Shown here: positions 9,205 through 41,215 of the stretch, piece after piece
Layout of the letters: every line of letters begins with the position of its first letter
How positions within the stretch are numbered: the first letter of the stretch is position 1
Virus record (IMG/VR): IMGVR_UViG_3300038829_000187
Coordinates: 1-44,479 of that record
Source: a virus
Taxonomy: Duplodnaviria > Caudoviricetes
DNA: 44,479 bases
Direction: 5' to 3' (one strand)
Made by a program: the position numbers and the translations under genes
The notes under the pieces: model-generated
The model's database searches: none
Told to the model about the DNA's origin: nothing
Seen by the model: only the letters and a program-made list of their open reading frames with translations

Positions 9205-9507
9205 TTAATCGCGGAAGTAGATGTAGTCAATCCCGTCGCCAGCCGTGAGGATGTCGAGATAGACTTTGTTGAGATTGTTGAGCGGATAGTCGTAATGCTC
9301 GCCGTTGGCGAGGAGCTTTCCTTGGCCCGTCGATGCGTCGGCGCTGGAATCACCTATGGAGACGTTGCTGGCATTGCCTGCTTTCGCATGAATGTGGATC
9401 ATGCGGCAGGGGGTGTCCGCGGTGACAACCTGGACAGCATCCCCCACGGTTCCCGTCTTGACGCCGCTCACTGCCGTTGCGAAGGTGTGCCGAGAGTCGT
9501 GAAGCAT
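9205..9507 (-). CDS. Small beta-rich virion protein
   Basis: AKAGNASNVSIG...GKLLANGE pattern; in the structural operon with a C-rich leader. Confidence 0.6.
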   Translation of the reverse strand: MLHDSRHTFATAVSGVKTGTVGDAVQVVTADTPCRMIHIHAKAGNASNVSIGDSSADASTGQGKLLANGEHYDYPLNNLNKVYLDILTAGDGIDYIYFRD

Positions 9508-9519
9508 GGGCTAGAGGGG

Positions 9520-9921
9520 TTACTTCTTGCCCTTCTTGTCGGGCTTGGAGAGTGTGGCGTTGACAACCTCTTCTTTCACTTCCTCCTTCTTTGGGGTGGC
9601 CTCGTCTTTGCCCTTCTTGTCGGGCTTGGCGGAGCCCTGTGGCGGGAACAGGATGCCGTCATGTTCTTCCCATCCTGCGGCTCGCTTCTCTTCGTCGCGT
9701 GCTCGCTCCCACGTCGGCTCATCTTTGACGCCATTGAGAACGACGCCGAAGGAGAGGTAGTGCTTGATGAAGCTCTTGTAGCTCTCCTGAGCAGCTTCTT
9801 CAGGATTGACGGCCATGCCCGCTAGGCGAGCTTCGATGAACGCCTTGTGATGGGCGATGAAGGGCAGAAGACGCCGCTGTTCGAAGAGCCTGTCGCGATT
9901 GATGCCGAGTCCGGTTGCCAT
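9520..9921 (-). CDS. Hypothetical protein with K/E-rich tail
   Basis: Fills the operon; repeated KPDKKGK; C-rich leader. Confidence 0.6.
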   Translation of the reverse strand: MATGLGINRDRLFEQRRLLPFIAHHKAFIEARLAGMAVNPEEAAQESYKSFIKHYLSFGVVLNGVKDEPTWERARDEEKRAAGWEEHDGILFPPQGSAKPDKKGKDEATPKKEEVKEEVVNATLSKPDKKGKK

Positions 9922-9941
9922 AAAGCGAGGGGGAAAGTGGA

Positions 9942-10580
9942 TTACTTAACGTGGTACTTGAGGTATTCGAAGTGAATAGAAGCGTCTGCTGAATTGACGG
10001 GGTGGATCTTTGCCCAGACCGCTTTCACGGTTGCTCCCGGAGGGATCAGGTGAGCTCCCGTGGCAACCATCAGACCACCATTGAATGTTGCCTTGTTGTT
10101 GATGATCTGGGCGCCAGACGTTGTAAGTGGCGTATTCGTCCATCCAACGTACAGGGCATCCGCTCCGCTTTCGCTCATGACGGTGGTTCGGATGAGAGCA
10201 CAGGTCGATGAGCTGCATGTGAAGGAGCCGGCGTTGTAGCCTGGCTTCGATCCCGAATATGTGAGCTTCACGAGACGTTGGCAGAGAAGAGCGCCTGTGA
10301 ATCCCGTGCAGAATTCCTGGTTGCGGTACGTGTTGGCCAGAATGTCACCCGATCCTGATTCAACATCGCCGTCTTCCTCGAATTTGAGGGCGTCTTGGGG
10401 GAACTTCCCGTCCACAACGAGCTGGATGGCGGGGGTTGCGTTATCCGTCGTCTCAAACGCGAGGTCTCCCTGGAGGAGCTGGGAGTTGTTGGCCAGGTTG
10501 GCAACGACCATTGCGATGGTGGCCAGGGTGTTTCCCCCGAGCATCAGAGCGTTCAGCCGAGTGTAAGAAGAGCTATCCAT
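9942..10580 (-). CDS. Putative structural protein with N-terminal hydrophobic helix
   Basis: Directly after the capsid gene; LMLGGNTLATIAMVVA segment. Confidence 0.55.
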   Translation of the reverse strand: MDSSSYTRLNALMLGGNTLATIAMVVANLANNSQLLQGDLAFETTDNATPAIQLVVDGKFPQDALKFEEDGDVESGSGDILANTYRNQEFCTGFTGALLCQRLVKLTYSGSKPGYNAGSFTCSSSTCALIRTTVMSESGADALYVGWTNTPLTTSGAQIINNKATFNGGLMVATGAHLIPPGATVKAVWAKIHPVNSADASIHFEYLKYHVK

Positions 10581-10598
10581 TGGCGTGGGGGGAAGGAA

Positions 10599-11642
10599 TT
10601 ACGCGGGCTGTGTAACACCCGAGTACGCGAGGACGTAGCCCTGCCAGCGGATCGACACGAAGGCCGCGAACATATCGAACAGAATGGAGGCGAGAGCGTT
10701 GTCGTTGCTGGAAGATTGGACGCGGAGTTTCGGATCGCCGGCAATCTGCACCTGGAGGTTCTCACGGAAGGCGGAGTCGTAGAGACCGAAGCGGTAGAGG
10801 TCGGTCGTACCTGTGCGGCGGGTCTTGCCGTCGGCTCCGATGAGTCCTTTCTTGAAGACGACGAGCTTCATGTTCCAATCGTTGTTGGGGCCGAAGACGT
10901 TCACAGCGTTGTTGGAGGAGAGCGGCGTCAATTGGCTACCGAAGATCTCGCGTCCACGCTTCACCATGTACGGTTGCTGGTTGATCCACGTTTCGTTCGG
11001 ATTCCAGCTCACGGGCACGCCGTCATCATTGAGGAAGTTGGCGTCGCCATGGGCCATGATCGCCGTAATGGAGTCGGGGGAGAAGGCACACGCGGTCGTG
11101 TAGCTGTTCGACTTGTTGCCGGGCGCCGGAGTCGCGTTGACCGTGTGGGTCGTAGAAACGAACGCCACGTCGTCGGCGGTGAGCCATGGGTCTCCTACAG
11201 CAGCGGACTGGTTGCGAGGCGTGTAGGTCGTGTCCTCGGCGTCGGAGATGGCCTTGTGTGTCATTTCCAGGTCGAGGGTCATGTTGAGCATCGAGGACAT
11301 GCGGGCTGCGACGCGGGTGGCGAGCTGGAGCTTGTCGAACTTGTCCATGCGGACGGTGTAGTCGAACTTCACGCCGTACTGAATCTGATTGACGGTCATG
11401 GAGTCTCCTTCCGTGATGCCAACAATCGGGTAGCTTTCGTTCTCCCCGACACGTTCGGCGTAGGTCGGCAGAGCGTAGCTGTCGAAGGTCACGCGGTCTC
11501 CCTCTGCGGGATTCCAGGGCTTCGGAACGTAGAGGCTCCGCACCATGTCGGGCGGGTTCACCTCCAGCTCCTTGAGCATCACGATCGGCAGGTTCGTGAC
11601 GAAGTTATCAAGGCCGGATGCGGAATGGGGAACGGTGGGCAT
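10599..11642 (-). CDS. Major capsid protein (Mu gpT-like, HK97 fold)
   Basis: 347 aa; GENESYP...EG...YGVKFDYT...DK and ADDVAFVSTTH patterns; follows the scaffold and decoration genes. Confidence 0.8.
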   Translation of the reverse strand: MPTVPHSASGLDNFVTNLPIVMLKELEVNPPDMVRSLYVPKPWNPAEGDRVTFDSYALPTYAERVGENESYPIVGITEGDSMTVNQIQYGVKFDYTVRMDKFDKLQLATRVAARMSSMLNMTLDLEMTHKAISDAEDTTYTPRNQSAAVGDPWLTADDVAFVSTTHTVNATPAPGNKSNSYTTACAFSPDSITAIMAHGDANFLNDDGVPVSWNPNETWINQQPYMVKRGREIFGSQLTPLSSNNAVNVFGPNNDWNMKLVVFKKGLIGADGKTRRTGTTDLYRFGLYDSAFRENLQVQIAGDPKLRVQSSSNDNALASILFDMFAAFVSIRWQGYVLAYSGVTQPA

Positions 11643-11679
11643 ACTGGAAGGGGGGAGTCAGAAGTAGAGGGCTGGGGGT

Positions 11680-12108
11680 TCAGTAGTAGGGAGCGAGGAA
11701 GGTGACGTAGCCGATGTTGTTGGCAACGTCGGCCCCGACAAGGCCCATGTCGTTGCGAACCTCGGTGAGATTGATTCCGTCCGGGCGGCTGCCGCCATAG
11801 TCCACGTCAACAAGAGAGCCAACGTCGGTGGCAACAACGGTGCCAGCCGTGACTTCTGCCTTGTACTCGCTGCCACGCTTCACGATTTCGATGGCGATGG
11901 CATCTGTAGAGGTGTCGCTGGACGCTTTCGCCTTTTGGGCAATGCCGAACGGACGGGTGTTATCCGTCATGTCGGCAACTTTGCCGGAGGCGAGTTTCAC
12001 GATGGCTCGTGACGTGATGGCTGTAGACGCATTCGTGGCCGGGAATCGGAAGACCGATTCAGGCCCCTTGCTCAGGTGGTATGCATTGAGGAGGCGATGT
12101 TCTCGCAT
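11680..12108 (-). CDS. Capsid decoration/cement protein
   Basis: 142 aa beta-rich protein (AIVKLASG, PFGIA, TDVGSLVD) between scaffold and capsid genes. Confidence 0.6.
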   Translation of the reverse strand: MREHRLLNAYHLSKGPESVFRFPATNASTAITSRAIVKLASGKVADMTDNTRPFGIAQKAKASSDTSTDAIAIEIVKRGSEYKAEVTAGTVVATDVGSLVDVDYGGSRPDGINLTEVRNDMGLVGADVANNIGYVTFLAPYY

Positions 12109-12124
12109 GGCGGGTGGGGGAAGA

Positions 12125-12718
12125 TTAGCCCCGCACGTACGTCGTCATGTTCTTGGCTCTTTCACCATACTTCGCTCGATCTTCGGCAGTGATGCCCATC
12201 TTGGCATCCGCGGCTTTCTGGTCGGGCGTTCTCTGGTCGATTGAACCGGAACGGTCAACGGTTGAGGGGGCTGAAGAGGTCTCAGCCTGGCGTAGGTGCT
12301 CGCCGATGTTCTGGGCGGTGATGCCTTTCTTGAGGAGTGCATATTCCAGGGCGACTTCGGGCTTCATACCTTGGGTAAGGTTCTGCTTGTAGTCGTCGCC
12401 GGCAAGAATGATCTTCTTGCTGTTGTCGCGTTCCCACAATTCTTCACGGGTGACGAACTGGGGTTCGGTCTTTTTCTCCTCGGGTTTGGTCTCCTTAGGG
12501 TTCAGGCTTTCGTTGGCCTTTTCCAGGCGACCTTTCCATGTTTTGGCATCTTGTTCGGTGGCTGCGAGCTTCGTTTCCAACTCTTTGACCGTCGGGTGGG
12601 ACTTGATCAGGTCTGCGGAGATTGTGGGGATCAAATCGGCCGTGATTGCAGGGTTTGCAGGTGGGGTTGTGACCGTCTGCGTGGAAGCGTTGCCATCGGT
12701 GGCAGTGGGCTGAGACAT
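12125..12718 (-). CDS. Head scaffolding protein
   Basis: Low-complexity N-terminus, coiled coil, and a C-terminal TPDQKAADAKMGITAEDRAKY scaffold-type motif. Start set at the ATG at 12718. Confidence 0.7.
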   Translation of the reverse strand: MSQPTATDGNASTQTVTTPPANPAITADLIPTISADLIKSHPTVKELETKLAATEQDAKTWKGRLEKANESLNPKETKPEEKKTEPQFVTREELWERDNSKKIILAGDDYKQNLTQGMKPEVALEYALLKKGITAQNIGEHLRQAETSSAPSTVDRSGSIDQRTPDQKAADAKMGITAEDRAKYGERAKNMTTYVRG

Positions 12719-12745
12719 TTGAAGCGGGGGAAGAAATAGTGAACC

Positions 12746-12834
12746 TTGTGAAGGCTCGGAGCTGCGAGCCAATAGGAGGAAAGGCCCGCACCTCGCAGCC
12801 TTCACAATTTGCACGTACGCCGGAGCTGTGAAGG
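12746..12834 (-). promoter_or_regulatory. Structured leader upstream of the scaffold gene
   Basis: TTGTGAAGGCT..GCTGCGAG pairs with CTCGCAGCCTTCACAA; a second GCTGTGAAGG lies at 12825-12834. Confidence 0.45.
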
Positions 12835-12900
12835 AACTACGGGCGAATCATCCACTCACGCCGCTGGTTCGTGAACAGCTCAAACGAAATGTTCTTCGCT

Positions 12901-13071
12901 TCATGCGTTGACAACGTCGATGTTGTATTTGTGTATCACCTGCTGGATGCGACGCACCGTTCGCCCGCATTCCTTGGCTGTGGCCTTCATGCTGCCCGTT
13001 TTCTGAAGGATGAAGAGTATCCATTTCTCCGCGGGTGATGCCTGTGCTGGGATGGTGATGCTACTTGCCAC
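12901..13071 (-). CDS. Small HTH protein (56 aa)
   Basis: Hand-translated from GTG: ...ILQKTGSMKATAKECGRTVRRIQQVIHKYNI, a Fis-like HTH. Confidence 0.6.
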   Translation of the reverse strand: MASSITIPAQASPAEKWILFILQKTGSMKATAKECGRTVRRIQQVIHKYNIDVVNA

Positions 13072-13222
13072 TGAGCACTTGGTAGACGGTGGTCAGAATG
13101 GTTGCTTTCTCTTCGGCGGGTTTCGGGGGCTCGGGTTGCGGGCGAACGCCTGTGAACTTCAGGAGGTCTTGGACAAGTTCCCACTTGCCCTCACGCTTCA
13201 GGGGGTCGGTTGTGAGACGCAT
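13061..13222 (-). CDS. Small hypothetical protein (53 aa)
   Basis: ATG lies just after the portal stop; fills the gap. Confidence 0.45.
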   Translation of the reverse strand: MRLTTDPLKREGKWELVQDLLKFTGVRPQPEPPKPAEEKATILTTVYQVLSGK

Positions 13223-13229
13223 GTGAATT

Positions 13230-15452
13230 TCACAGAGGGCCTTTATTCCTGACCTGCCCAGGGGCGACAGGTTGCGGAGAGCCGACTCCTCCGCTTCCGA
13301 AGGGCGTAAATCCTTCAATGTCAGGGGTGGGGGCAAGAGACGGCTGTCCTGGCTGCCCTGGAGCCATTGAAGAAGCCATTTCCGGAGACGGGATGCCATT
13401 TTTGGGGAGGGTAAGATCTGGGCGGCTGGAAAGGAAGCTGCTGATTTGTTCCAGGATACCATCTACCTCGTCGTTCATTTCTGCAACGGGGTCAGTCTTT
13501 CGCATCACGTCGTCCTCTTTCAGGTCGAGAGCGTGCACCATTTCGAGGTCGAGTTTCTGCATGTCGAATTCGGAGGCGAGTTCCGGCATCTGCATCCCTT
13601 CCATCACGCGAACACGGGCATAGTCGGCGAGCATTTTGATCTTGGCCATCTTCACGTTCTGATTGTCGCCGAGCATGTGCTTGGCTTCTGCCCGGATTTT
13701 GGGAATGCCGCCTCGCTCTGCGTACTCAATACTTTCAACATACTTCTCGCGGGCAGGGATGCTGCCGGTCTGCTTTCCCCGGTACTTCTCTACTTCTTCC
13801 AGGCTTTCGAGGTCGTACTTCCCGTCCTTGTTGGGCTTCTCCTTGTACACGGCTCCGGGGGTGGGGATCATGAACCGGATCTTCTTACGGGGTGGCTCCT
13901 TCGTGTAATCGGTGGACAGAAGGTTCTCGTAGTCGTCCGGCGATGTTTCTCCTGCTGCGATCTTGCCCACGATCTCCTCCACGTCTTCTTCGGTCAGGTT
14001 TTCGTAGTCTTCGACGGTGAGGTCGCTCATGACGCCGCCAAGCAGGAGTTCGCCCATCTTCGTAAAGCATCCGTCCTCAAGATTGTTCAATCGGAAGACA
14101 AAGCCCTCTTCGTTTGCCTGTACCTTCTGGAAGAGTTCGTAGGCGGTCGATGATGTCTCGCCGGCGAGTTGCTTGAAGTTCGATCGGCCCAGGTACATAG
14201 CCGAGTCTTCCAGGAATTCTCTGTACCAGCTGTAATTGCTGAGGCTCACCTGGCCGAGGGGAGTTGCAAGTATCTCTCCACCGTTCTTGAAGACGTAGCC
14301 AGAGTACATTTCCTTGATGTTGATCTCTTCGTTCGTTCCGGGAACGCCGGAGAAGGACTTAAACGAGACGGGGACGGTGTTTGCAAGACGCATATTATCG
14401 ACCGTCATGTTCCCGAACGCCTGGTAGAGCACGTTCAGTGCGTCGATGAGGGCGGGATGGCCCATGCCGTAGAGAGCGTGGGTTCGGAGATTGCTGTCGT
14501 ACTGGTGCCAGTTGGCCCCGAAGCAGAGTGAGGTGCGGCCAAGGACGTTGTGGCCAGCTTTCTTCTTCTTGCGATCCTTCTTGAGTGGTTTATCAAAGAT
14601 TAAAACACCGTTGGCATAGAGGCGATACACATCCTGAATCTCATTTTGGTAGCAAACAACGATGACACCTTTGTGATCGCTCTCCCGATATTCGAGCGTA
14701 CCGTCGTTTCCGATTGCAACAATCCTGCCTGGTGAGACGAATTCGGTGTGGTTGTACTTGTACTTGCCATCGGGGAGCTTCACTCGAGCATAGTTCTGGA
14801 CGAACTGCTCCCAGCTCATTGCATCGTGGAAGAAGATCGAGGGAGCTTCTTCGGGGGTGCGGGCGAACGGATTCATTCCACATTCGTAGGGCGAGCGGTA
14901 GCGAACGCCGAGCTTGGGTCGTCGATAGTCGGGCCTCACAATCTCGTCGTATTCGGGCTCGTCGTCGTTGGGATCGGTTTTGGGGATGCGTTCGGTTCGC
15001 TGGGGCGTTTGGGAGAAGACTTCGTAGACGCCGTTGCCCATCACTTCCCAGTCGGTCAAAAAGTAATCCTGCTGATTGTCGAAATTGCTGTCGTTCATCA
15101 CGGCGTCGATGGCCGGCTTCCAGAGCATATCGACCTTGCGGTAGTCGGACGTGCTGCCAGGGCTAATGCCGAAGCCAGGGCGCCCTTTGCTCATGGCGGT
15201 GAGGCTGGCTGTGCAAATCATCCGGGCGAACGGAAAGAGCACGTTGCTCACGTTCGGGTCGTCGATCGGTTCGGCGAGGAGATTCCAACCCTTCGCCGCT
15301 TTCTCCCAGTCGGGCGTGAACTTTGAACGATAATCGACCATCTGCTGAATGTCGAATTCATCGTTCTTCTTCGCTTCTAATTGATGTGGCTTGGCTGCCC
15401 AGGTGGACTTTCCTGCTTGGCCTGGTTGGACGTGGAAGGGTAGCTGCGGCAT
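13230..15452 (-). CDS. Portal protein (P22-like)
   Basis: 740 aa; VMGNGV, SPYE, YGMG and TAYE motifs; P/Q-rich C-terminus; lies between terminase and scaffold. Confidence 0.85.
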   Translation of the reverse strand: MPQLPFHVQPGQAGKSTWAAKPHQLEAKKNDEFDIQQMVDYRSKFTPDWEKAAKGWNLLAEPIDDPNVSNVLFPFARMICTASLTAMSKGRPGFGISPGSTSDYRKVDMLWKPAIDAVMNDSNFDNQQDYFLTDWEVMGNGVYEVFSQTPQRTERIPKTDPNDDEPEYDEIVRPDYRRPKLGVRYRSPYECGMNPFARTPEEAPSIFFHDAMSWEQFVQNYARVKLPDGKYKYNHTEFVSPGRIVAIGNDGTLEYRESDHKGVIVVCYQNEIQDVYRLYANGVLIFDKPLKKDRKKKKAGHNVLGRTSLCFGANWHQYDSNLRTHALYGMGHPALIDALNVLYQAFGNMTVDNMRLANTVPVSFKSFSGVPGTNEEINIKEMYSGYVFKNGGEILATPLGQVSLSNYSWYREFLEDSAMYLGRSNFKQLAGETSSTAYELFQKVQANEEGFVFRLNNLEDGCFTKMGELLLGGVMSDLTVEDYENLTEEDVEEIVGKIAAGETSPDDYENLLSTDYTKEPPRKKIRFMIPTPGAVYKEKPNKDGKYDLESLEEVEKYRGKQTGSIPAREKYVESIEYAERGGIPKIRAEAKHMLGDNQNVKMAKIKMLADYARVRVMEGMQMPELASEFDMQKLDLEMVHALDLKEDDVMRKTDPVAEMNDEVDGILEQISSFLSSRPDLTLPKNGIPSPEMASSMAPGQPGQPSLAPTPDIEGFTPFGSGGVGSPQPVAPGQVRNKGPL

Positions 15453-15489
15453 GGAGGTACCACGATCCTCCTATCACGCCGGAGTATAC

Positions 15490-15705
15490 CTACTGTCTCT
15501 TCGCTTGCAACTCGGCCTTCGATTGAGGCTGCAACTGGATCGCTCCGTCGATGCCGGGATCGGCACGCTGCATTTGAAACGGTGACGGTGCGAGCTTCTG
15601 CATCTCCTTTCCGCAAATACAGACGATGGTTTCGCCGAACACGGCTCCTTCCATGCGGCAGTCGCGTTGCTCACCGCAGTTTCCGCAGACGAATGTGTAG
15701 ATCAT
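15490..15705 (-). CDS. FmdB-type zinc-ribbon protein
   Basis: MIYTFVCGNCG...CICGKEMQK. Confidence 0.7.
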   Translation of the reverse strand: MIYTFVCGNCGEQRDCRMEGAVFGETIVCICGKEMQKLAPSPFQMQRADPGIDGAIQLQPQSKAELQAKRQ

Positions 15706-16016
15706 TTGGCTTGGCGGGTAATGGGCTTAAAAGGATGAATACCCATGTGTTCAAGCTCCACGTCCAGGTCATCTTTGTTCTTCTCGTACTTCTCAATCTC
15801 TTTCTCCTCCATGAAGTTCCTGCCGGTTCTCGCCTCCTCCATGTAGTCGTAGCCTCCGGTGGTGAAGCCTGGGCCGCGGAACTGCACGCGGGGGTAGGCG
15901 ATCGTGTAGGTCATGGGTTTGCCACATTTGCAGCGGATGGTCTTGGGCCGGAGGCCGAAGGGGCAGGACAGCTCCTTGCTGTGCCCCAGTGGGCAGCGGA
16001 AGTTGTAGGCGGGCAT
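15702..16016 (-). CDS. FmdB-type zinc-ribbon protein
   Basis: MPAYNFRCPLGH...CKCGKPM...VQFRGPGFTTGGY. Confidence 0.8.
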   Translation of the reverse strand: MPAYNFRCPLGHSKELSCPFGLRPKTIRCKCGKPMTYTIAYPRVQFRGPGFTTGGYDYMEEARTGRNFMEEKEIEKYEKNKDDLDVELEHMGIHPFKPITRQAK

Positions 16017-16327
16017 CAGTCGGTGATGAGACCGGAGTCGGTCGAAGTGTTGGAGAGTTGGCTGAGAGCGTCTTCGATGTTCGTGCGGGCCTCGGCGGAT
16101 TGTTCGGGGGTGAGCGGGCCTACTTCGATCCGTGGGAACATGCCTTTAGGGGTGTAGTCGAGCCGCACACCTTCATGGAGTCCAAGGTCATTGAGATGCA
16201 ACATGTATTCGAGCCTCAGCTTCTTGGCCTGGGCGAGCTTTTGGTTCACTTCTCTCACTTGGCGTTCGGCAAGAATGCGGTGGGCGTTCTCATCAATCTG
16301 TCGCTGGATTTCTTCTTTGGATGGCAT
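16016..16327 (-). CDS. Hypothetical coiled-coil protein
   Basis: Stop overlaps the next start; start set at MPSKEE. Confidence 0.6.
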   Translation of the reverse strand: MPSKEEIQRQIDENAHRILAERQVREVNQKLAQAKKLRLEYMLHLNDLGLHEGVRLDYTPKGMFPRIEVGPLTPEQSAEARTNIEDALSQLSNTSTDSGLITD

Positions 16328-16343
16328 GGGCGAAAGGGTACGC

Positions 16344-16595
16344 CTAGTAGTGGTGCTTCTCAAGGTGACTCACGGTGAGGTAGTGGGATGTCCACACGAG
16401 GCCAAGAGAATGCCATTCCTCTTTGTTTTCAGCGAGGAAGCGGGCGAACATCTCGGAGAGCTTGCGGGTGATTTGCTGTTGCTTGTCGCTCGTAAGTGGT
16501 TTCTCGCCCGTGATGGTGACGTTCCAGTCCGCGACGATCTGCGGGAGGAAGACGTGGAGGTCTTCGCGTTCGATTCCGTCAGAGGTTTGTGGCAT
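16344..16595 (-). CDS. Hypothetical protein
   Basis: Operon position; start set at MPQTSD. Confidence 0.5.
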   Translation of the reverse strand: MPQTSDGIEREDLHVFLPQIVADWNVTITGEKPLTSDKQQQITRKLSEMFARFLAENKEEWHSLGLVWTSHYLTVSHLEKHHY

Positions 16596-16803
16596 AGGTC
16601 TCGGAAAGAAGACAAGCACAGTATGAGCATCGAATGCGTCGGCTCGTTTGTGTGGGGAATTCTTGTCCTACTTCAATGGGGCGATGGTAGCCGATCTCGC
16701 AACGCATGATCGTGAGAAAACGACGCCAGCCAATGCGAAGAGGGCTGTTGAATCTGAAGTTGAATCGGAATGACTGCCAGAGGGGTTGTGGAAAGTATCG
16801 CAC
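16579..16803 (-). CDS. Hypothetical Cys/His-containing protein
   Basis: Fills the gap after terL; C...GYH and CSYC motifs. Start uncertain. Confidence 0.35.
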   Translation of the reverse strand: MRYFPQPLWQSFRFNFRFNSPLRIGWRRFLTIMRCEIGYHRPIEVGQEFPTQTSRRIRCSYCACLLSETYATNL

Positions 16804-22930: not shown

Positions 22931-22932
22931 CC

Positions 22933-33036: not shown

Positions 33037-33861
33037 ATGCCCGGTCTGGAAGCCAGGAACGGACACCGGCCCAAGCTGAATGTGCTGCCCGATGGCGGTG
33101 TCGAAGTTCCCGATGGCTTCGTGCAGCTCTCCGACGATCTCCTCCGCTACAACATCAGTGGCGCCCATCGCTATCTTCATCTTCCGACCCTGACCTGGTG
33201 CAAGGGCCTCACGACGATCCTCAAGAACATGCCGATGGACGAAGGCCTGATGCGGTACGTCGCGAACCAGGGGGGGTACGACCAGTATCGGGAGAACCTC
33301 TCGAAAGCCGGCAAACGCGGGACGCGGGTCCACTTGAGCATCGGGGATCTGCTCGACGGCAAGACGATCCGGCGCCGGCAGTTCACGGACGAAGAATGGA
33401 ACCACCTCTGCACCTGGGTCCAGTTTTTCAAGGATCACCTGCTCGACACCTTCGCGATTGAACAGCCCATCGTGGACACGCGGCGCAAGGTCGCTACCTG
33501 CATCGACTGGCGGGGCGACTTCAACGGAGTCCACACGTCGGTCAACTGGAAGACCAGCTCCGCGATATACGAATCAGCTTGCGTGCAAGCCAACGAAGAA
33601 GCGTGGATCTACAACGACGCCGGCCAATTCGACGAGCTGGGGCCTGTCGAGAAATGGGCGGTGGTCCGGACCGGGACTCGCCACAAGTGCGGTTACGAAA
33701 TCGTCGCAGAGCCCTTGGATAAGGCCAAACACGAGTATTTCAATCACCTGCTCGCGATCGACGAATACCACGATCCGAACGGCATTCCGATCTTCCCGAA
33801 GGAACTCCCCGACACGCTCAAGCTCCCCGATTCCCCTCCGCTCAATGGCAAGCCCCACTGA
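33037..33861 (+). CDS. PD-(D/E)XK (RecB/Cas4-like) phage nuclease
   Basis: RGTRVH, IEQPI, CIDW and VNWKTS..IY....VQ motifs; TACAAT 6 nt before the ATG. Confidence 0.75.
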   Translation: MPGLEARNGHRPKLNVLPDGGVEVPDGFVQLSDDLLRYNISGAHRYLHLPTLTWCKGLTTILKNMPMDEGLMRYVANQGGYDQYRENLSKAGKRGTRVHLSIGDLLDGKTIRRRQFTDEEWNHLCTWVQFFKDHLLDTFAIEQPIVDTRRKVATCIDWRGDFNGVHTSVNWKTSSAIYESACVQANEEAWIYNDAGQFDELGPVEKWAVVRTGTRHKCGYEIVAEPLDKAKHEYFNHLLAIDEYHDPNGIPIFPKELPDTLKLPDSPPLNGKPH

Positions 33862-34030
33862 ACTCTTCCAAGCCACGATCCCCCAGGTCATGCGCGTCGC
33901 CTCCATGCCCGACAGCGACACGAAAACCGGCTTGATCCAAGCCTCGGAAGAAACGATCGACGAATGGTTCGCCGGCGGTGAAATCACTGCGGAGCAACGC
34001 CGGCAGCTTCTGGACTTGCTGCGGCGATAG
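33845..34030 (+). CDS. Small hypothetical protein
   Basis: Overlaps the nuclease stop; GEITAEQRRQLL motif. Confidence 0.45.
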   Translation: MASPTELFQATIPQVMRVASMPDSDTKTGLIQASEETIDEWFAGGEITAEQRRQLLDLLRR

Positions 34031-34283
34031 TGTAGCGATCGTATCGCTCCGCCAACCACCATTGCAGATTCTTGATTGCCTCGTTCAGCTTCACACACTC
34101 CTGCTCAACTCGATATTTGCATTCGGCCTGAAGGGTGAAGATCGCCTTGCGGTCCTCCGTCCTTTCCTTTCGCTTGTCGTAGTCGGCTCCGATCGCGTTC
34201 ACTCGCTCATCCGCTTTTTCGACCAGAATCCTGTAGAACTCTTCGTAGATCACTGCCGATTCAAGCTGCGGCCTGAGTCCCAT
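33984..34283 (-). CDS. Hypothetical coiled-coil protein
   Basis: Coupled to 34261..34431. Confidence 0.5.
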   Translation of the reverse strand: MGLRPQLESAVIYEEFYRILVEKADERVNAIGADYDKRKERTEDRKAIFTLQAECKYRVEQECVKLNEAIKNLQWWLAERYDRYTIAAASPEAAGVAPQ

Positions 34284-34431
34284 GGAGCAAACGCTGGTAG
34301 CGGAGCACCTCGGCATCCGAAAGGTAAAGAAGGTTTCTGCGGACAGTGTCGAGCATGATTCTTTTCACGTCAGTCGGGCATTCTTCGTGAGTCTCAAGCC
34401 AGACGATCAGGGCGTCCGTCTCCTCGATCAT
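34261..34431 (-). CDS. Small hypothetical protein
   Basis: ATG 6 nt after a minus-strand TATACT box. Confidence 0.45.
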   Translation of the reverse strand: MIEETDALIVWLETHEECPTDVKRIMLDTVRRNLLYLSDAEVLRYQRLLHGTQAAA

Positions 34432-34453
34432 GGAAGGAGTATACTCCTCGCCG

Positions 34454-35308
34454 ATGGAACGCCAGAAAGGGGCGGAAAGCAACGGCAAGGCCGACAAGGT
34501 TCCGCTCTGGCAGAAGCTTTACACGAAAGACGCGTACATGGAGTTAGCTAGGACAGTCAGCTACACCGGCATTTCCATCGAAGACATTCGCGAGAAGATC
34601 AAGCCGCTAGAGCAACGCTTCGGCAGAGAACTGATGGTGAAGGCGGCGGATGACCTGGTCCAAGTGAATGACACGTGGGTCCGCTTGAAGACCGAAGCGC
34701 GTCATCTCTGCTGGCAACTCCTTGGACCACCACCCGAGCATCCTGACTACGTGAAGAAGGAAGCGCCTGCCGAACCGCCGCCGAAACCGAACAAGAAGCC
34801 GAGAAACAAAAAGAAGGAGTTTGTTGCGCCAAACACTCCGAATGTAAACAAACAAGCGACTCCGCTGATGCAGCAATGGAAAGAAGCCAAGGAACGGCAC
34901 AAGGACATGCTTTTGCTATTCCGGGTCGGGGACTTCTACGAACTTTTTGATTCCGACGCGAGGAGCGGTGCCAGGATCTTGGGGCTCACACTCACCAGCA
35001 GGGACAAGACGATCGACATGGCGGGCTTCCCGCACCATCAGCTTGAGACCTATCTGCACAAACTCCTCAAGGAAGGCGTCCGGGTTGCGGTCTGCGATCA
35101 GGTGGATTCGGCCAATGGGAAGGCGGTCAAGCGGGAAGTGACGCGGGTGGAAACGCCAGGCTCGATGATTGAAAAAGTTGGCGACGACGCTCTTTACGCC
35201 AGGGAGTACGAACTCCGTCAGATTCTCGACCGAGACAAAACGAAGGAGCAAATGGACGAAGCCATGGCACTCAAAGCTGAGATTCGCCGGCGAGCGAAGG
35301 CTTCGTGA
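34454..35308 (+). CDS. Protein with a stand-alone MutS domain I (mismatch-binding)
   Basis: TPLMQQWKEAK, LLLFRVGDFYELF, LGLTLTSR, MAGFPHH, VAVCDQV and REVTRVETPG; no ATPase domain. Confidence 0.9.
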   Translation: MERQKGAESNGKADKVPLWQKLYTKDAYMELARTVSYTGISIEDIREKIKPLEQRFGRELMVKAADDLVQVNDTWVRLKTEARHLCWQLLGPPPEHPDYVKKEAPAEPPPKPNKKPRNKKKEFVAPNTPNVNKQATPLMQQWKEAKERHKDMLLLFRVGDFYELFDSDARSGARILGLTLTSRDKTIDMAGFPHHQLETYLHKLLKEGVRVAVCDQVDSANGKAVKREVTRVETPGSMIEKVGDDALYAREYELRQILDRDKTKEQMDEAMALKAEIRRRAKAS

Positions 35309-35318
35309 TCCAAGTCTC

Positions 35319-35486
35319 CTACCACCCGGCAAACCAGACAATCAGCCACGCCACAAGCCAGAAGGGCGCCAAAGCAAGACAAAGGACGATGATCCCCACC
35401 CCGGTTCTATGGCCGAGCTGCTGGGCGCTTCGGCTGCGTCCGACCCACCGGAAGTAGTCCCTCAGAAGTTCGCGGATGAAGCTCAT
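35319..35486 (-). CDS. Small membrane protein (55 aa)
   Basis: Hand-translated MSFIRELLRDYFRW...GIIVLCLALAPFWLVAWLIVW. Confidence 0.45.
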   Translation of the reverse strand: MSFIRELLRDYFRWVGRSRSAQQLGHRTGVGIIVLCLALAPFWLVAWLIVWFAGW

Positions 35487-35523
35487 CCGGGCATTTTATT
35501 TGCTTGCCCGGATTCCACGGCAA

Positions 35524-36714
35524 CTATCCAAAAACCCGCGTGATGGCCTCCTTCATGACTGTCGGGTACAGGTGACGGTAGCGGCGGCGTTGTTGCTCGG
35601 ACTGATGCCCGACGATTTCATCAATCACCCTCTGATCTACTCCCTCGCTTGCCAGGGCGGAGATAAACGAATGGCGTAGGACGTGGAAGCCGCGGAGGAC
35701 AGACCATTTCGAGTCGGCCACTGTTCGTCGGAAATGGTCATGGGCTTCGTCTTTGGTGACCGCGGCTGGGGTTTCCCGCTTCGTCTTGCTGCGGGAGACG
35801 TGCCCTTGGCAGAACAAGAAAGGGCTGTCTGGCCGAACAGCGAACCAAAGACGGAGGGCCTCGGCGAGTTTCGGGGTGATTGGAGCGGTGCGAGACGAGG
35901 TCTTTCCGCGAACCCTTTTCTTCTCGCGGATCGTCAGGACACCTGCTTTCAAGTCCACGTCGCCGACCAGACAGCGGAGCATTTCGCTTCGACGGGCGCC
36001 TGTATACGCGGCAAAGGCAACCATCGGGTACACCCAGGGCAGCGTTCCGTTTCCCTGAACGTAGAGCAGGAATTCTTCCATCTCGGCACGAGTCAGGTAC
36101 AGCGATTCCCAAAGCGGTTCGGGAGCGGATTCAATTTCAGCGAATGTGCGAAACGGTTCCTTTTCATCCTCCTTCGGGAAGCGAAGGCCCTTTCCCGGAA
36201 AAGTGCCCTTGAGAACGCCGGCATGCACCCCCCAGTTCCAGCAAGCCCGGATGCTCGCCATTTCTTTCTTGAGGGTCACAGCGGACACTTTCTTGCGGCG
36301 TCGGTCAACATGCTCCTGCAAGTGCAGGAGGGTGAGGGTTTGAATGCGGAATCGTTCTCCCAGGCTTTCGACGCAGTGGTTCAGGTGCGTACGGGCGGTG
36401 CCGAGGGAGCTTTCCTCGATCGTGCCATTGGCGTGGGTTTGTAAATAGTGATCCACCAGCTGCCGGGCGGTGATCGTCTCAGGCCTGGCGGAAACGACGG
36501 GGGCTTTGCCGCCACTCGCGACAAAATCCTCCAGGCTGACGCCATCGGGAACGGTCAGGCGCCCACGCTCGATCAGGGCCAGCGTTTCGTCAACTTCAGT
36601 CCCCTTCGCGAGGGCTTGGGCTTCGGTCACGTCCCCAACGGTGAAGTAGTGTCTACGTCCCTGAAAGCGGAACGTGCAGTAGAAAGCCTCGCCTTTCCTG
36701 CGAATACCGGCCAT
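35524..36714 (-). CDS. int: Tyrosine integrase
   Basis: TGARRSE (R), K, HVLRH (HxxR), VGH and Y catalytic residues; N-terminal arm-binding domain; AGGAG SD. Confidence 0.95.
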   Translation of the reverse strand: MAGIRRKGEAFYCTFRFQGRRHYFTVGDVTEAQALAKGTEVDETLALIERGRLTVPDGVSLEDFVASGGKAPVVSARPETITARQLVDHYLQTHANGTIEESSLGTARTHLNHCVESLGERFRIQTLTLLHLQEHVDRRRKKVSAVTLKKEMASIRACWNWGVHAGVLKGTFPGKGLRFPKEDEKEPFRTFAEIESAPEPLWESLYLTRAEMEEFLLYVQGNGTLPWVYPMVAFAAYTGARRSEMLRCLVGDVDLKAGVLTIREKKRVRGKTSSRTAPITPKLAEALRLWFAVRPDSPFLFCQGHVSRSKTKRETPAAVTKDEAHDHFRRTVADSKWSVLRGFHVLRHSFISALASEGVDQRVIDEIVGHQSEQQRRRYRHLYPTVMKEAITRVFG

Positions 36715-36730
36715 AGGAGTCTCCTTTCGG

Positions 36731-37042
36731 AAACGCCCTGTAGATTCCCTACTGGCGGAAGATTGGCGGAAAACCCGTCTTCCAAGAGAAAAGGGCTTAC
36801 AGCATTCTATGCCGTAAACCCTTGAAAAGAAGCGAGTGCCGGAGACAGGACTTGAACCTGCACTGTATTGCTACAACCAGGCCCTCAACCTAAAGCCTGT
36901 CCACTTCTCTTTCAGGGTATCTACAGGGATGTTTCCTACAAGTGATTGGAATGAGGGCTCTTTCCATCAAGAGCCCATTGCAATCACATTGTAGGCACAG
37001 GGAGACGAAAGGGGCAATGCTGGCGGAAATTTGGCGGAAGAA
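36731..37042. mobile_element. attP region: arm-type repeats and hairpins around a tRNA-derived core
   Basis: Paired TGGCGGAA direct repeats at 36753-36771 and 37021-37039; inverted CCCTGTAGAT/ATCTACAGGG at 36736 and 36919; hairpins at 36791-36823 and 36935-36995. Confidence 0.8.
36837..36891 (-). tRNA. 3' half of tRNA-Leu(GAG) (attP core, not a functional tRNA)
   Basis: Minus strand AGG-TT-GAG-GG-CCTGG, long variable arm, GCAGG-TTCAAGT-CCTGT T-arm, CTCCGGCA acceptor half; no D-arm or 5' half. Confidence 0.85.
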
Positions 37043-37049
37043 AGACACG

Positions 37050-37322
37050 CTAGGATGGGCCGTAACTGCGGAGCCGTTGTAGCTCCTCGTGGCTGATGAG
37101 CCACTCCCCGCCCTTCCCGCGTCCGCAAGCTTTCTTTATAGCTTTTACCCTCCCCAAGCGGCAATACTCCCGCACGGTGTACTCGGCCTTACCAATTATC
37201 TCGGCAATCTCAGCGGTACTATACATCGCCTTGACCGTCTTTTCCTGGATCAAGGTGGCGAGCATTTGCTCGATGCGGTCGAGCCGTTCAGGAAGGTCGG
37301 GCCAATCATTCTTGGGTTGCAT
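37050..37322 (-). CDS. Excisionase-like HTH protein
   Basis: YSTAEIAEIIGKAEYTVREYCRLGRV...WLISHEEL; lies on the far side of attP from the integrase. Confidence 0.85.
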   Translation of the reverse strand: MQPKNDWPDLPERLDRIEQMLATLIQEKTVKAMYSTAEIAEIIGKAEYTVREYCRLGRVKAIKKACGRGKGGEWLISHEELQRLRSYGPS

Positions 37323-37484
37323 GGGTGCTCCTAGACTCCGTTTCTGGATCGTTCTTCTGGCTCAGCAGGGCGTGGAAGTGATCGAGGCAAAGATCGCCGT
37401 TCACCACTCCGCGGACGGTGATGACTCTTTTCTTTTCGGAATTATCCCCTTTACAAACCACGGCGAGGGGGGTAGTCTCAGGGC

Positions 37485-38399
37485 ATGACTACTCCACACC
37501 TCACCGAACTCTGGGAAATGACAGAAGAGGAAGCCCGTACCTACCTTGAAAGTGTCCGGTGGCCGGACGGTGCTGTCTGCCCTCACTGTGAATCGAAGAA
37601 GGTAACGTACTTGAACGGGAAGGCCACCCGCGCCGGAGTGTACAAGTGCAAAGATTGCCGGAAGCAATTCACGGTCACGGTGAACACTATTTTCCATCGT
37701 TCCCACATTCCGCTCAAAAAGTGGGTCATTGCCTTCCACATGCTGTGCAGTTCTAAGAAAGGAATTTCCGCATTGCAGTTACAGAGGAACCTTAAACTGG
37801 AATCGTACGAGTCTGCATGGCACATGGCGCACCGTATCCGCTATGCAATGACAGAAGGCCCGATGGCAACACTTCTGAAAGGAACCGTGGAAGTGGATGA
37901 AACGTACATAGGCGGAAAGCCGAGGATAAAAGGAGTGAGCAAGAGAGGACGCGGGACAAAGAAAACTCCTGTCCTCGCTCTAGTGTCCCGTGATGGTTCT
38001 GCAAATTCTTTCCCCGTAGAACGGGTGAGCGGGAAAACATTGAAAACTGCGATCAGAGAAAACGTGGAGAGCAGTGCAAGAATCCTCACCGATGAACTAC
38101 CCTCTTACGGCGGGATCGGGAAAGAGTTTGAGGGAGGACATGAAACCGTGAACCATGGCCGCAAGGAATACGCCCGCGGGGATGTAAACACGAACTCAGT
38201 TGAATCATACTTCGCCCTATTAAAGAGGGGCGTACACGGAACGTTCCACCACATTTCTAAGCGACACTTGCCCCGCTACTGTGAAGAGTTCGCCTTCCGA
38301 TGGTCACACAGAAAAGAGAGTGACAGTGAGAGGGCGTTGGCTGCCTTACTTCAAACCAGCGGAAAGAGGCTAACCTATCGAGATATGATTGCCGGATGA
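37485..38399 (+). CDS. IS1595 (ISXO2-like) DDE transposase
   Basis: RWPDG..CPHC Zn ribbon, VEVDETYIGG, ILTDE, VNH..EY, TNSVESYF, YCEEFAFR. Confidence 0.96.
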   Translation: MTTPHLTELWEMTEEEARTYLESVRWPDGAVCPHCESKKVTYLNGKATRAGVYKCKDCRKQFTVTVNTIFHRSHIPLKKWVIAFHMLCSSKKGISALQLQRNLKLESYESAWHMAHRIRYAMTEGPMATLLKGTVEVDETYIGGKPRIKGVSKRGRGTKKTPVLALVSRDGSANSFPVERVSGKTLKTAIRENVESSARILTDELPSYGGIGKEFEGGHETVNHGRKEYARGDVNTNSVESYFALLKRGVHGTFHHISKRHLPRYCEEFAFRWSHRKESDSERALAALLQTSGKRLTYRDMIAG

Positions 38400-38523
38400 T
38401 GGAGTTTCGGAAAAACCCATCATCATAATGGGATTTTGAAAAAGTCCTTGCATAAGGAAATGGGGCGGTCTATGATCGAGTAGTCCTTGCAAGACGACTC
38501 TTTCATTCCTACCCCAAGTTTCC

Positions 38524-38904
38524 ATGACCAGCGTAAACAAACGGCTTCTACAAGTCAAGATTAAGCAGCGCGACGATGCGAAAGGAAAGTTCGATGAACT
38601 GGAAAGGGCTGTACAAGCACTAGTTATCGCTGCTGAGATCGAGGAAAGCGAAGGAATACAAGAAAACAGTCCTAAGATTTATCAACCGAAAAATAGTTGG
38701 AAGCAGATGGGAAAAGAGCGAACGAAAAAAGTAACCGAGATGCTCAGCGCTGCCGCCGGGGAACTCCATTTTAACTATCTGGCAAAACAACTCGGCCTAA
38801 AACCAATTACTATGAAAGACTGGATGCTTTCGCAGATAGAAAGGAAAAAGGATCGCTGCCCGTGGAAAGTGGGCAAGAATAAGTCGTACTACGTTCTCCG
38901 GTAG
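38524..38904 (+). CDS. IS passenger, possible winged-helix protein
   Basis: Coiled coil, then ELHFNYLAKQLGLKPITMKDWM; C-rich leader. Confidence 0.55.
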   Translation: MTSVNKRLLQVKIKQRDDAKGKFDELERAVQALVIAAEIEESEGIQENSPKIYQPKNSWKQMGKERTKKVTEMLSAAAGELHFNYLAKQLGLKPITMKDWMLSQIERKKDRCPWKVGKNKSYYVLR

Positions 38905-38931
38905 GAGAACATTTCCCGCTCTTTCAAAGGA

Positions 38932-39042
38932 CGTATTGATCCCCTCGGAGAGTTAGCAATCGGGAAAGGCCTCGCTGTTAACGAGTAACCTTTCCGCTAG
39001 CAACGATTGGACTGACGAGTCACCTCCGAGGGGATCTATGCG
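38932..39042 (+). ncRNA. Candidate structured RNA inside the IS
   Basis: Outer stem GATCCCCTCGGAG/CTCCGAGGGGATC; inner GGAAAGG/CCTTTCC and GACT/AGTC stems. Strand not established. Confidence 0.45.
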
Positions 39043-39139
39043 CCCCGATTGTAACACGCCGTATCCATAGAGTATACTGCCCTTCGATGCCTCCAGATAG
39101 TAATAATCGCCGAAAGAAAGAACTGAAGCCCATTTCCCT

Positions 39140-39436
39140 ATGGCCTCTCACTCCGAAAGATGCTCTGAGAGCGGCAATGCAGACACAGTTACCGAAACCG
39201 AAGAAGCACAAAAAGCACTGAAGATTTTTCCGAGCACCTGTGATACGATGATGTCCATGGCAGTTGCTGACAATAAGGCAATAAGTTGGGCGTTTCTCGT
39301 GGGGTTCGTTGTCTTTATAGGTACGGCTTTTTTGCCACTGTTCCCGGCAGACATGTCCTTTGGGACTTCTTTCATTATTTCGCTTGTCGCTTGTTTCGCG
39401 GTAGCCATCCCTGTTTATAACATCGCTAAAAAGTAA
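39140..39436 (+). CDS. IS passenger, two-TM membrane protein
   Basis: Two hydrophobic helices; C-rich leader. Confidence 0.55.
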   Translation: MASHSERCSESGNADTVTETEEAQKALKIFPSTCDTMMSMAVADNKAISWAFLVGFVVFIGTAFLPLFPADMSFGTSFIISLVACFAVAIPVYNIAKK

Positions 39437-39587
39437 CCTGTTCATGGTTTGTTAAGGAGACAAATCCGAACTATTTTGTTTGCGGGGTGAAAATTGATGG
39501 GGCGCTACTTCGAACCTTTCAATCGGAAAAAGGACAACAACTCCAAAAAGATTGTCAAACTTTACCGAATTCACATTCTGGGCAATG

Positions 39588-39618
39588 AAAAAAAGCCCCT
39601 CCCTTGCGAGGAGGGGCT
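39588..39618 (-). terminator. Rho-independent terminator
   Basis: Minus strand AGCCCCTCC-loop-GGAGGGGCTTTTTTT after the 39644..39973 gene. Confidence 0.8.
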
Positions 39619-39643
39619 GCCCCTTCACCGGGCATCCTGCCCG

Positions 39644-39973
39644 TTACTGCTGAGGTTCCTCGCCCCCTTGCTCCTCTGCCTGGGACGCCAACCACTGGTA
39701 CGCCTGGGCCAAACCGATGGAAGCGGCTGGCATGGCGTCCTCGGCGATGAAGTTCGTCCACTCCCGCTTGTCGCCGGACTGGAACGACTGCTGCAACGTC
39801 ACCGTGTACGTCTCGAAGTCACCGTTTTTGCCTTTGTTGACCCGTTCCCAGACCGTGACCGAGAGAGTGCCCCCTCGGACGCGGTAGTACAGGCGGTGAA
39901 CGACCTTCGACTTGTTTTCCTGCTTGGGCGGGGCTTGGGTTGCCCCATTACCGTTTCGTTGGAATCGACGCAT
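39644..39973 (-). CDS. Putative ssDNA-binding (PC4/SpoVG-like) protein
   Basis: LSVTVWE...YTVTLQQSF...W.....D......LAQAYQW pattern; acidic tail; AGGAG SD. Confidence 0.55.
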   Translation of the reverse strand: MRRFQRNGNGATQAPPKQENKSKVVHRLYYRVRGGTLSVTVWERVNKGKNGDFETYTVTLQQSFQSGDKREWTNFIAEDAMPAASIGLAQAYQWLASQAEEQGGEEPQQ

Positions 39974-40012
39974 GCGATACTCCTTGGTTGAGACTAGCGT
40001 TTCCTGCCGTGG

Positions 40013-40780
40013 CTACGTTGCCATGGCAAAGTCAGGCTCTTCTTGCGTGGCGACCTGAGAGAACAGGTCTGACAGCCTAATCGTGAGGTGGGCAAACTGT
40101 TGCGGGTTGGTCTTTTGCCGGTCGGCCAGAATTGTCGTGTGAGCATTGTAGAGGCTCCACAAGGTGCGAGGCTCGAACTCTTCGTAACTCGGTTTCTCCC
40201 ATTCCGCGATGACGCGGGGCAGTAGCTGTGTGCTGATGATTTCCTTCCGGTAGGCCCGGAGGATCAGCGACTCGGCTACCACCTGGGTGATTTCCGTGTT
40301 CTGAAGGCGTCCGATCCTCTCCCCTTCGGCCTCTTGGAATGACACGAGATTCTGGATGGCCATGGTGATGGCCTCATGAAATCGGATTTGCCCATTCCTC
40401 GTGTGCTTTCTGCGGACGTTGATCAGGTCGGCCCGAAAGGCCATGTTCGAACATACGAACACACGATGGCCGGCCACTAGCCCTAGCGGGATTGACCGAT
40501 CTTGGGCTGACCTGATTCCGACACAAAGGTTGACGCCTGTTGCCACGGACGTGGAAAGATCCAGAGTCCCAAAGAAGCGATCGTCGTGGCGGGACAGTGC
40601 AAGCTCGTACTTCTCAACGCGGAAGTTTGCTTGCTCCAGCAGAGACTTGCAATCCCGAAACACCTGGTGGTGTGGAACGGGAAAGTACGTCTCGGTGGGT
40701 GGCGGACAGGGGACAGCTTCAAGTGTCGCCAAGTCCACCTTGCGTGCGCCGTTGTAGGCGACCAAAGCGGATGTGCTCAT
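40013..40780 (-). CDS. DUF932-family protein
   Basis: PVPHHQV, RFFGTLDL, GIRSAQD, G.RVFVCSNMAF, RRKHT and RTLWSLYNAHT motifs; GAGGAGG SD. Confidence 0.85.
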   Translation of the reverse strand: MSTSALVAYNGARKVDLATLEAVPCPPPTETYFPVPHHQVFRDCKSLLEQANFRVEKYELALSRHDDRFFGTLDLSTSVATGVNLCVGIRSAQDRSIPLGLVAGHRVFVCSNMAFRADLINVRRKHTRNGQIRFHEAITMAIQNLVSFQEAEGERIGRLQNTEITQVVAESLILRAYRKEIISTQLLPRVIAEWEKPSYEEFEPRTLWSLYNAHTTILADRQKTNPQQFAHLTIRLSDLFSQVATQEEPDFAMAT

Positions 40781-40868
40781 ACTCCTCCTCGATGGTGTGA
40801 AAGGGACGATGCAGCAGCTCCTTCGCTGTTGCATGAGGAGGATAGACCTGTGATGAGCAGAGGAGCAA

Positions 40869-41189
40869 TTAGCTCTTCATGAGGCTATATGCCGCCGTAG
40901 ACTCAAAGAACACCGTGAAGGAGAGCAAAAGGGTCTGCGTGTCGAAGGTCGGCGGAATGCCAGTCTTGTACCAGACGGAGAGAAGGCTGAGTCCGACGCA
41001 GAGAAAGGCGACGAAACAGCGAATGGCCATCGTTCGGCCGGGAGCGACGGAATCGCATAACCACTGAAAGAACTTCAGCTTGCCAAGCCCTGGAATTCTT
41101 TTCGCTTGCTTCAATGCTTCGGTGATGGCAGTGATGACGGTCGCCATGGTGATGGTGTAGCCGCTGAATTCGGCAATCGACATGTCCAT
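40869..41189 (-). CDS. Holin-like membrane protein
   Basis: VITAITEALK motif and 2-3 TM segments; last gene of the lysis cassette. Confidence 0.55.
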   Translation of the reverse strand: MDMSIAEFSGYTITMATVITAITEALKQAKRIPGLGKLKFFQWLCDSVAPGRTMAIRCFVAFLCVGLSLLSVWYKTGIPPTFDTQTLLLSFTVFFESTAAYSLMKS

Positions 41190-41215
41190 ATAAGAAGGGG
41201 GGAGGGGGGGTAAAA

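Follow-up and report, generated by a model that had tools for sequence, protein, structure and literature searches.

The stretch examined here is the IMG/VR record IMGVR_UViG_3300038829_000187 (44,479 nt, referred to below as the window), which represents one circular tailed-phage genome of 44,352 bp with 127 nt identical at both ends (terminal repeat). It consists of a phage backbone and a foreign block of about 11.4 kb (29471..40868, borders approximate, genes on both strands) that is set apart by its Shine-Dalgarno (SD) leaders and codon use and harbors an integrase, an excisionase, and an attachment (att) site of planctomycete type. The backbone carries groES and groEL genes of the type found in Peribacterales, which belong to the candidate phyla radiation (CPR). 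Matches to Pfam and PHROG families indicate that the window encodes terminase subunits, a holin, a peptidase, groES/groEL, an integrase, a methyltransferase, a sigma factor, and an IS1595 transposase. The genome sequence was present in two groundwater DNA runs (X1 and X2), both from one sample, and no RNA datasets were found among the public runs listed as containing it.

Leader styles and codon use within the genome

An earlier note on this DNA had described two styles of translation initiation in one genome, namely C-rich leaders without SD before structural and chaperonin genes and AGGAG-type leaders before the genes of the block. The ten leaders that it quoted were each present once, letter for letter, immediately 5' of an in-frame start, including those of the methyltransferase (GTG at 29481) and the DUF932 gene (ATG at 40780). 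The two styles were counted over 61 gene starts placed by hand from a codon-score listing, with the leaders visible during placement (i.e., not blind); the amidase (~24064) and several doubtful short open reading frames (ORFs) had no placeable start and were excluded. Genes between 29411 and 40860 were taken as block genes, and an SD 4-mer was defined as GGAG, GAGG, or AGGA at -17..-5. Such 4-mers preceded one of the 42 backbone genes and seven of the 19 block genes (Fisher p 7.4e-4), whereas SD 5-mers were found before none and six of them, respectively (p 4.9e-4). The mean C+T content of the last 15 nt of the leader was 0.70 in the backbone and 0.47 in the block (Mann-Whitney p 4.5e-5). Internal ATGs showed no such contrast (C+T of 0.47 in the backbone and 0.43 in the block; SD 4-mers in 19/187 and 4/45), thus it is a property of true starts. 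Leaders separated by 10 nt or more from the upstream gene kept the difference, with SD in 1/26 backbone and 7/14 block genes. Folding of the start region amounted to -5.8 kcal/mol in the backbone vs. -10.5 kcal/mol in the block.

The SD and C+T counts confirmed that the two styles are split between the backbone and the 29.4-40.9 kb block, although the description of each style needed adjustment. Backbone leaders were indeed pyrimidine-rich, but they are better termed G-poor and C/U-rich than runs of C (CCCC occurred in 33%). The block was mixed: seven genes were SD-led, but the other 12 of 19 lacked SD. Four block genes (32859, 38524, 39087, and 34454) scored backbone-like, two of them inside the IS1595 element.

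Codon use also differed between the block and the backbone (chi-square of 143 against 53 +/- 16; 0/300 shuffles). That of the block correlated at 0.93 with loci that carry related integrases and at 0.85 with Peribacterales. The low-GC insertion sequence (IS) and the strongly expressed virion genes may account for part of the difference, and groES/groEL scored block-like when left out.

Leaders and 16S rRNA tails of the candidate hosts

Reference leaders for Peribacterales were taken from 20 evenly spaced chromosome stretches (400 kb, five genomes, unambiguous starts only), which replaced an earlier groEL-centered set because groES/groEL were over-represented there. The planctomycete-side reference consisted of five plasmid stretches and 37 metagenome loci with related integrases, the taxonomy of these loci being inferred from the integrase only. 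In Peribacterales chromosomes, SD was found at 3/101 starts compared to 266/2013 internal ATGs (odds ratio [OR] 0.20, p 0.001), and the leaders had C+T and G contents of 0.66 and 0.14, to which the backbone was close (0.70 and 0.13). In planctomycete DNA, SD was enriched at starts, both on the plasmids (16/34, OR 14) and in the integrase-relative loci (24/34, OR 24). A cross-validated two-class leader model correctly assigned 81/101 Peribacterales and 58/68 planctomycete-side leaders, and it classified 38 of the 42 backbone genes as Peribacterales-like vs. 6 of the 19 block genes. Leader scores of 8 or more were obtained for 18/42 backbone and 34/101 Peribacterales leaders, and for only 1/68 planctomycete-side leaders. 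The two styles thus correspond to two different cells, as had been proposed, and protein similarity and the att site agree with this. A single host whose own genes use both leader types, without module-specific codon bias, finds no support in these data, given that only 1/68 planctomycete-side leaders was as pyrimidine-extreme as 18/42 of the backbone leaders and that codon use differed between the modules. Candidatus Peribacter riflensis has been listed as SD-scarce, with SD at 7% of its genes, compared to 48% in Planctomycetia (PMC10783764).

The 3' ends of Peribacterales 16S rRNA genes were variable. The CCTCC anti-SD core was kept in only 3 of 33 tails; instead, CTCCTT was found with AGGGAG three bases downstream in 19/33, and TTCCTT with AGGGAA in 13/33. 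The anti-SD and the downstream motif thus covary (C-G in 19 and T-A in 13 of the 33), as in a short hairpin with compensating changes. Since the anti-SD varies together with such changes, the tail appears to be maintained for the hairpin rather than for mRNA pairing. A similar hairpin occurs in the rRNA precursor of other bacteria. If retained in mature rRNA, the hairpin would conceal the anti-SD. On the other hand, the 19 tails with CUCCUU still paired in silico with the SD leaders cited above (AAGGAG) at about -8 kcal/mol. With SD not enriched at starts and the anti-SD core not conserved, Peribacterales may be counted, by sequence criteria, as a lineage with SD-independent initiation. A "reverse SD", in which leaders pair with the AGGGAG/AGGGAA motif behind the tail, was set aside, as the gain over internal ATGs was below 2 kcal/mol and the motif covaries as a hairpin.

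Furthermore, Peribacterales chromosomes contained TANNNT at -14..-5 of 29% of unambiguous starts, compared to 0-3% in planctomycete DNA. This frequency suggests that many Peribacterales mRNAs may be leaderless or have very short leaders.

Integration module and other features of the genome

The tyrosine integrase (35524..36714, minus strand) belongs to a tRNA-Leu-associated family, and its top relatives are 62-78% identical. Six of the 120 relatives listed name an organism, Gemmataceae in five cases and Isosphaeraceae in one (62-75% identity), and a whole tRNA-Leu lies directly before the integrase in 14 of the 26 relative loci scanned. The AAAGGAG leader of the gene is common to these relatives, and the leader is therefore inherited. 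The catalytic motifs of the integrase are intact and were invariant across a nine-sequence alignment. The protein has four changes at near-invariant columns, and 33/88 other relatives have as many. It is also 12 residues shorter, and its 12 deleted positions are unusual, as only 1/88 others has five or more. The excisionase gene (37050..37322, minus strand; HTH_17) has an AGGAG leader and is 48-73% identical to the gene located beside related integrases.

Between the two genes lies the att core of 57 nt (36835..36891, minus strand), which was delimited by alignment with the tRNA-Leu-integrase loci and corresponds to the 3' half of a tRNA-Leu(GAG), beginning at the anticodon stem and including the acceptor end. 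The 5' half is absent, and there was no whole tRNA gene within the window. The last 27 nt of the core were identical in 10/10 relative loci (row L092 of the alignment looked misaligned and was left out) and in 0/8 Peribacterales tRNA-Leu(GAG) genes, and the best tRNA matches to the core across 200 Peribacterales genomes reached 79-82%. An arm-type tandem repeat on the integrase side (36753..36771, minus strand), which is found as one copy on that side in eight relative loci, recurs here on the excisionase side (37021..37039, minus strand) and completes a phage-type att site (attP); the repeat had two matches in the window and none in 100 shuffles. As arms flank the core on both sides, compared to the single integrase-side arm in relatives, the predicted layout, with int and xis adjoining, is that of an excised circle (attP).

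At position 36835, a loose end of the X2 contigs revealed a second sequence in the sample that has the end of the att core in common with the window and then continues like a related element. Integrases of the same family were also found in 2 of the 200 Peribacterales bins, on contigs with housekeeping genes. One of these (L175:1853-10668; G178:C150) is an 8.8-kb island with a split integrase, an excisionase, a partial tRNA-Leu, and SD leaders. A Peribacterales-style gene is split by the island, which has a perfect 35-nt direct repeat on its two sides and represents either a real insertion or a misassembly. In the other (L169; G014:C7:28383-32438), an integrase of the family (47% identity) is fused to an unrelated N-terminal part and lies between the genes for RNase III/nusB and ribosomal protein S10. 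Both bins were given less weight because the islands look mosaic and may be misassembled.

The remainder of the block begins with a methyltransferase gene of the N6/N4 type (29481-30383, plus strand, AAGGAG leader), which is convergent with a restriction endonuclease gene (30352-31224, minus strand); the pair matched PF01555/PF18643. These are followed by genes without SD for a sigma-70 factor (32107-32862), a PD-(D/E)XK exonuclease (33037-33861), and a MutS domain I protein (34454-35308), all on the plus strand. Relatives of the sigma factor were at most about 38% identical over the full length, and neither the search for them nor look-ups in the Atlas pointed to a lineage. A palindrome with TATACT on both strands (34431-34454) lies between two divergent starts and might act as a promoter in both directions, in which case the leaders would be very short. 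The IS1595-family element (37437..39468, both strands; PF12762) has terminal inverted repeats matching at 20 of 24 nt and comprises a transposase (37485-38399) and low-GC passenger genes, two of which have backbone-like leaders. Toward the right border are two SD-led genes on the minus strand, encoding a 109-amino-acid protein without a match in the family search (39644-39973) and a DUF932 protein (40013-40780; PF06067), the top plasmid match of which was from Planctomyces sp. SH-PL62 (36%).

The left part of the backbone (1..29410, both strands), containing virion, packaging, and small early genes together with groES/groEL, has pyrimidine-rich, SD-free leaders and runs via the circle junction into the right part (40869..44479, minus strand), with holin, lysis-like, and virion genes (PF16083, PF01551) and pyrimidine leaders. 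The major capsid protein (10599..11642, minus strand, 347 amino acids) has a strongly Peribacterales-like leader (log-odds 11.6). Its predicted model (predicted local distance difference test [pLDDT] 78, predicted template modeling score [pTM] 0.77) had an HK97 capsid as its top PDB match (E 2.8e-10), thus the product is predicted to adopt the HK97 capsid fold. Together, the terminase large (16815..18179, minus strand) and small (18185-18730) subunits matched PHROG 979 (E 8e-37) and PHROG 606 (E 3e-24). The HK97-fold capsid and the two terminase subunits support the assignment to Caudoviricetes. An ORF of 740 amino acids (13230-15452) sits where the portal gene usually lies, without a Pfam or PHROG match. 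The groES-groEL pair (25768..27719, plus strand; Cpn10 and Cpn60) has pyrimidine leaders on both genes. Of the 64 best-matching genome loci for its GroEL (63-74% identity), 60 were named Peribacteria or Peregrinibacteria, compared to at most 57% identity for non-CPR loci.

Among the genes of the window, none was recognized as encoding a replication initiator, helicase, primase, or polymerase, and the only recombination-type genes, the exonuclease and DUF932, are located inside the foreign block. An Rfam scan of the window gave no credible match. The frame with amidase and 3D domains (23633-24825) lacks a good start codon and stays open upstream, beyond the stop codon that ends the preceding membrane/coiled-coil ORF (~23960); a natural or programmed frameshift is possible in this region.

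Origin of the block and its bearing on Peribacterales

The explanation that we favor, and hold to be probable, is that a phage of Peribacterales acquired an integrative element after its excision in a planctomycete, so that the leaders are inherited footprints of origin. The block is likely to consist of this element plus later additions. The planctomycete element would have been excised as a circle and would have met the phage DNA in one cytoplasm, either by uptake into a competent Peribacterales cell or by entry of the phage DNA into a planctomycete. The Competence family, found in 5/5 Peribacterales genomes tested, could offer the uptake route. One crossover away from attP would then have joined the element to the phage, and an 8-nt direct repeat at the borders (29471-29478 and 40861-40868; chance expectation 0.15) is the candidate site. 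Peribacterales ribosomes would likely initiate on open, unstructured, G-poor pyrimidine leaders without SD pairing, perhaps via bS1, which binds pyrimidines. The SD-led genes of the block would be translated less well in Peribacterales, an incidental effect rather than a switch under selection.

Several observations weigh against the capture of a planctomycete element by a Peribacterales phage. The assignment of the backbone draws on the two signs of a Peribacterales phage that were found, the host-type groES/groEL and the host-type leaders, and on nothing else; its codon use is uninformative (correlation of 0.84 with both references). A single-protein search of the 200 Peribacterales genomes gave no match for the capsid, and terminase matches in 4/200 bins were distant and mostly on SD-led contigs. 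The parts of the block that are firmly of planctomycete type are limited to int, xis, and att, and the top plasmid match of the methyltransferase was from an actinobacterium, Gordonia (63%), which is not lineage-diagnostic. Continued use would equally be expected to leave attP, int, and xis intact and the integrase no more eroded than its relatives at conserved columns. X1 and X2 do not provide independent support because they come from one sample, which is perhaps the source of the window. The wider searches also yielded little: no close prophage was found in the 200 Peribacterales genomes (the DNA search covered 24.5-44.5 kb only, with groEL dominating the matches listed), and most of the phage contigs binned with Peribacterales had SD leaders and no relation to this phage. 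In viral_contigs, there was no close relative of the capsid (in a closer alignment too), the integrase, or the MutS-I protein, and only distant relatives of GroEL, DUF932, and the terminase were found. Known relatives of the capsid protein include P0361 (77%), P0384, and P0365.

Continued use of the module leads to an explanation that we consider possible but unlikely, i.e., a temperate phage that divides its cycle, forming virions lytically in Peribacterales and residing as a prophage at the tRNA-Leu(GAG) of a planctomycete (Gemmataceae) on which the Peribacterales cell would likely live. Leader style would bias which module is read, and initiation would act as a sensor of cell identity. The complete attP, int, and xis agree with this, as do a core that fits planctomycete-type and not Peribacterales tRNAs, the sequence from the same sample that shares the core end at 36835, and the integrase family in 2/200 Peribacterales bins. 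There are also precedents, since a host prophage has been described with limited replication in a CPR epibiont (PMC13578794), and some phages have been reported to be matched by CPR as well as non-CPR spacers (PMC10746230). However, the contigs of three runs contained no attL/attR or excision joint and no joint that skips the block (rare forms are lost from contigs), none of the block genes was identified as a repressor, and the 12 deleted positions of the integrase are rare in its family. The leaders themselves speak against such a sensor, as 12/19 block genes lack SD, 19/33 Peribacterales tails pair with SD leaders at about -8 kcal/mol, and roughly half of planctomycete genes have no SD at their start (48% with SD in PMC10783764; 16/34 on the plasmids). 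The earlier suggestion that each module is tuned to a different cell's ribosomes, as a selected gate, is not upheld by these data, given the inherited leader of int, the mixed block, the many SD-free planctomycete genes, and the many Peribacterales tails that keep CUCCUU. Control of lytic and lysogenic expression through the ribosomes of the host is a hypothesis.

That a Peribacterales phage and a planctomycete element were joined artificially, during assembly or library preparation, is improbable. The data come from one sample at a depth of about 5-6, the X2 contigs break at 40843/40850, beside the right border, and no close relative was found, so that the same join was seen in none. However, the left border is bridged by an X2 contig (27881-30275) and an X1 contig (29329-30498), and the right border by an X1 contig (39781-41134), each with 0 differences. 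Contig depth is alike inside and outside the block (2.4-6.9 in X1 and 4.3-6.6 in X2), and X2 breaks every 0.5-1.7 kb anyway. Among the loose ends listed, none leads elsewhere at either border; the one at 29578 reads as the methyltransferase of another organism. A shared 8-mer would also be too short to mislead the assembler.

It is very improbable that the whole phage infects a planctomycete, having picked up groES/groEL from Peribacterales and having its SD-free leaders read SD-independently. The att site, int, and xis would fit such a host, and by protein only groES/groEL tie the backbone to Peribacterales; on the other hand, the high leader scores (18/42 in the backbone, 34/101 in Peribacterales) were almost absent from the planctomycete side (1/68), in a test weakened by a reference of plasmids and metagenome loci rather than chromosomes. 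Adoption of the module for lysogeny in Peribacterales at their own tRNA-Leu(GAG) is highly improbable. The 7 nt of the anticodon loop, where exchange would likely take place, were identical in 8/8 Peribacterales tRNA-Leu(GAG) genes examined, but owing to differences in the anticodon stem, T arm, and acceptor (best identity 79-82%), integration would likely leave a mispaired tRNA. In addition, the two integrase-bearing bins have a split or a fused copy, with only a partial tRNA adjoining in G178.

A capture by a Peribacterales phage would resemble several known systems in part. Bacteroidota leaders are A-rich. The C/U-rich, G-poor style of Peribacterales and its split within a genome were not found for SD-scarce lineages in the literature search, unlike the general pattern, in which SD loss in a lineage is mirrored by its phages (PMC10783764, PMC7162821); the idea that leader style marks the host is already known in broad terms (PMC7162821, PMC9297842, PMC13059738). 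The integration module resembles tRNA-Leu tyrosine-integrase elements named as Gemmataceae in its integrase (62-78%), tRNA-Leu core, arm repeat, AAGGAG leader, and related xis; it differs in being in attP form within a 44-kb phage, the other genes of which have no counterpart in those loci. Xhp1, a prophage of Schaalia odontolytica with limited infection of the epibiont TM7x, is likewise a temperate phage tied to a CPR cell and its host cell (PMC13578794). Xhp1 is described as a host prophage that spills into the CPR cell, whereas here, as known from sequence only, the virion genes have CPR-type leaders and the integration module alone is of host type. For the co-targeted phages, translation features (there, the genetic code) also served to judge compatibility with two cells, with both codes considered genome-wide (PMC10746230); in the present genome, the modules differ in initiation style, and the att site is the marker of the second host. 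The literature searched, with most subscription journals outside its coverage, contained neither a planctomycete attP module in a phage body of CPR type nor two initiation styles divided between the modules of one genome, and no literature naming the host cell of Peribacterales was found. Planctomycetes and CPR, including a peribacter, have been enriched together, with no pairing shown (PMC9040852).

These results point to close contact between Peribacterales and planctomycete cells, and possibly to a virus using both cell types. If the integration module is in use, this would be a rare life cycle divided between two phyla, and a two-cell cycle, if true, would name planctomycetes as the hosts of Peribacterales. 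Even a cautious reading has a Peribacterales phage and a planctomycete element meeting, as DNA, within one cell, and this gives a concrete lead to the organism that hosts Peribacterales. The 57-nt att core would be usable as a barcode for the partner cell, and the G-poor, C/U-rich leader style may allow a homology-free assignment of phages and genes to Peribacterales.

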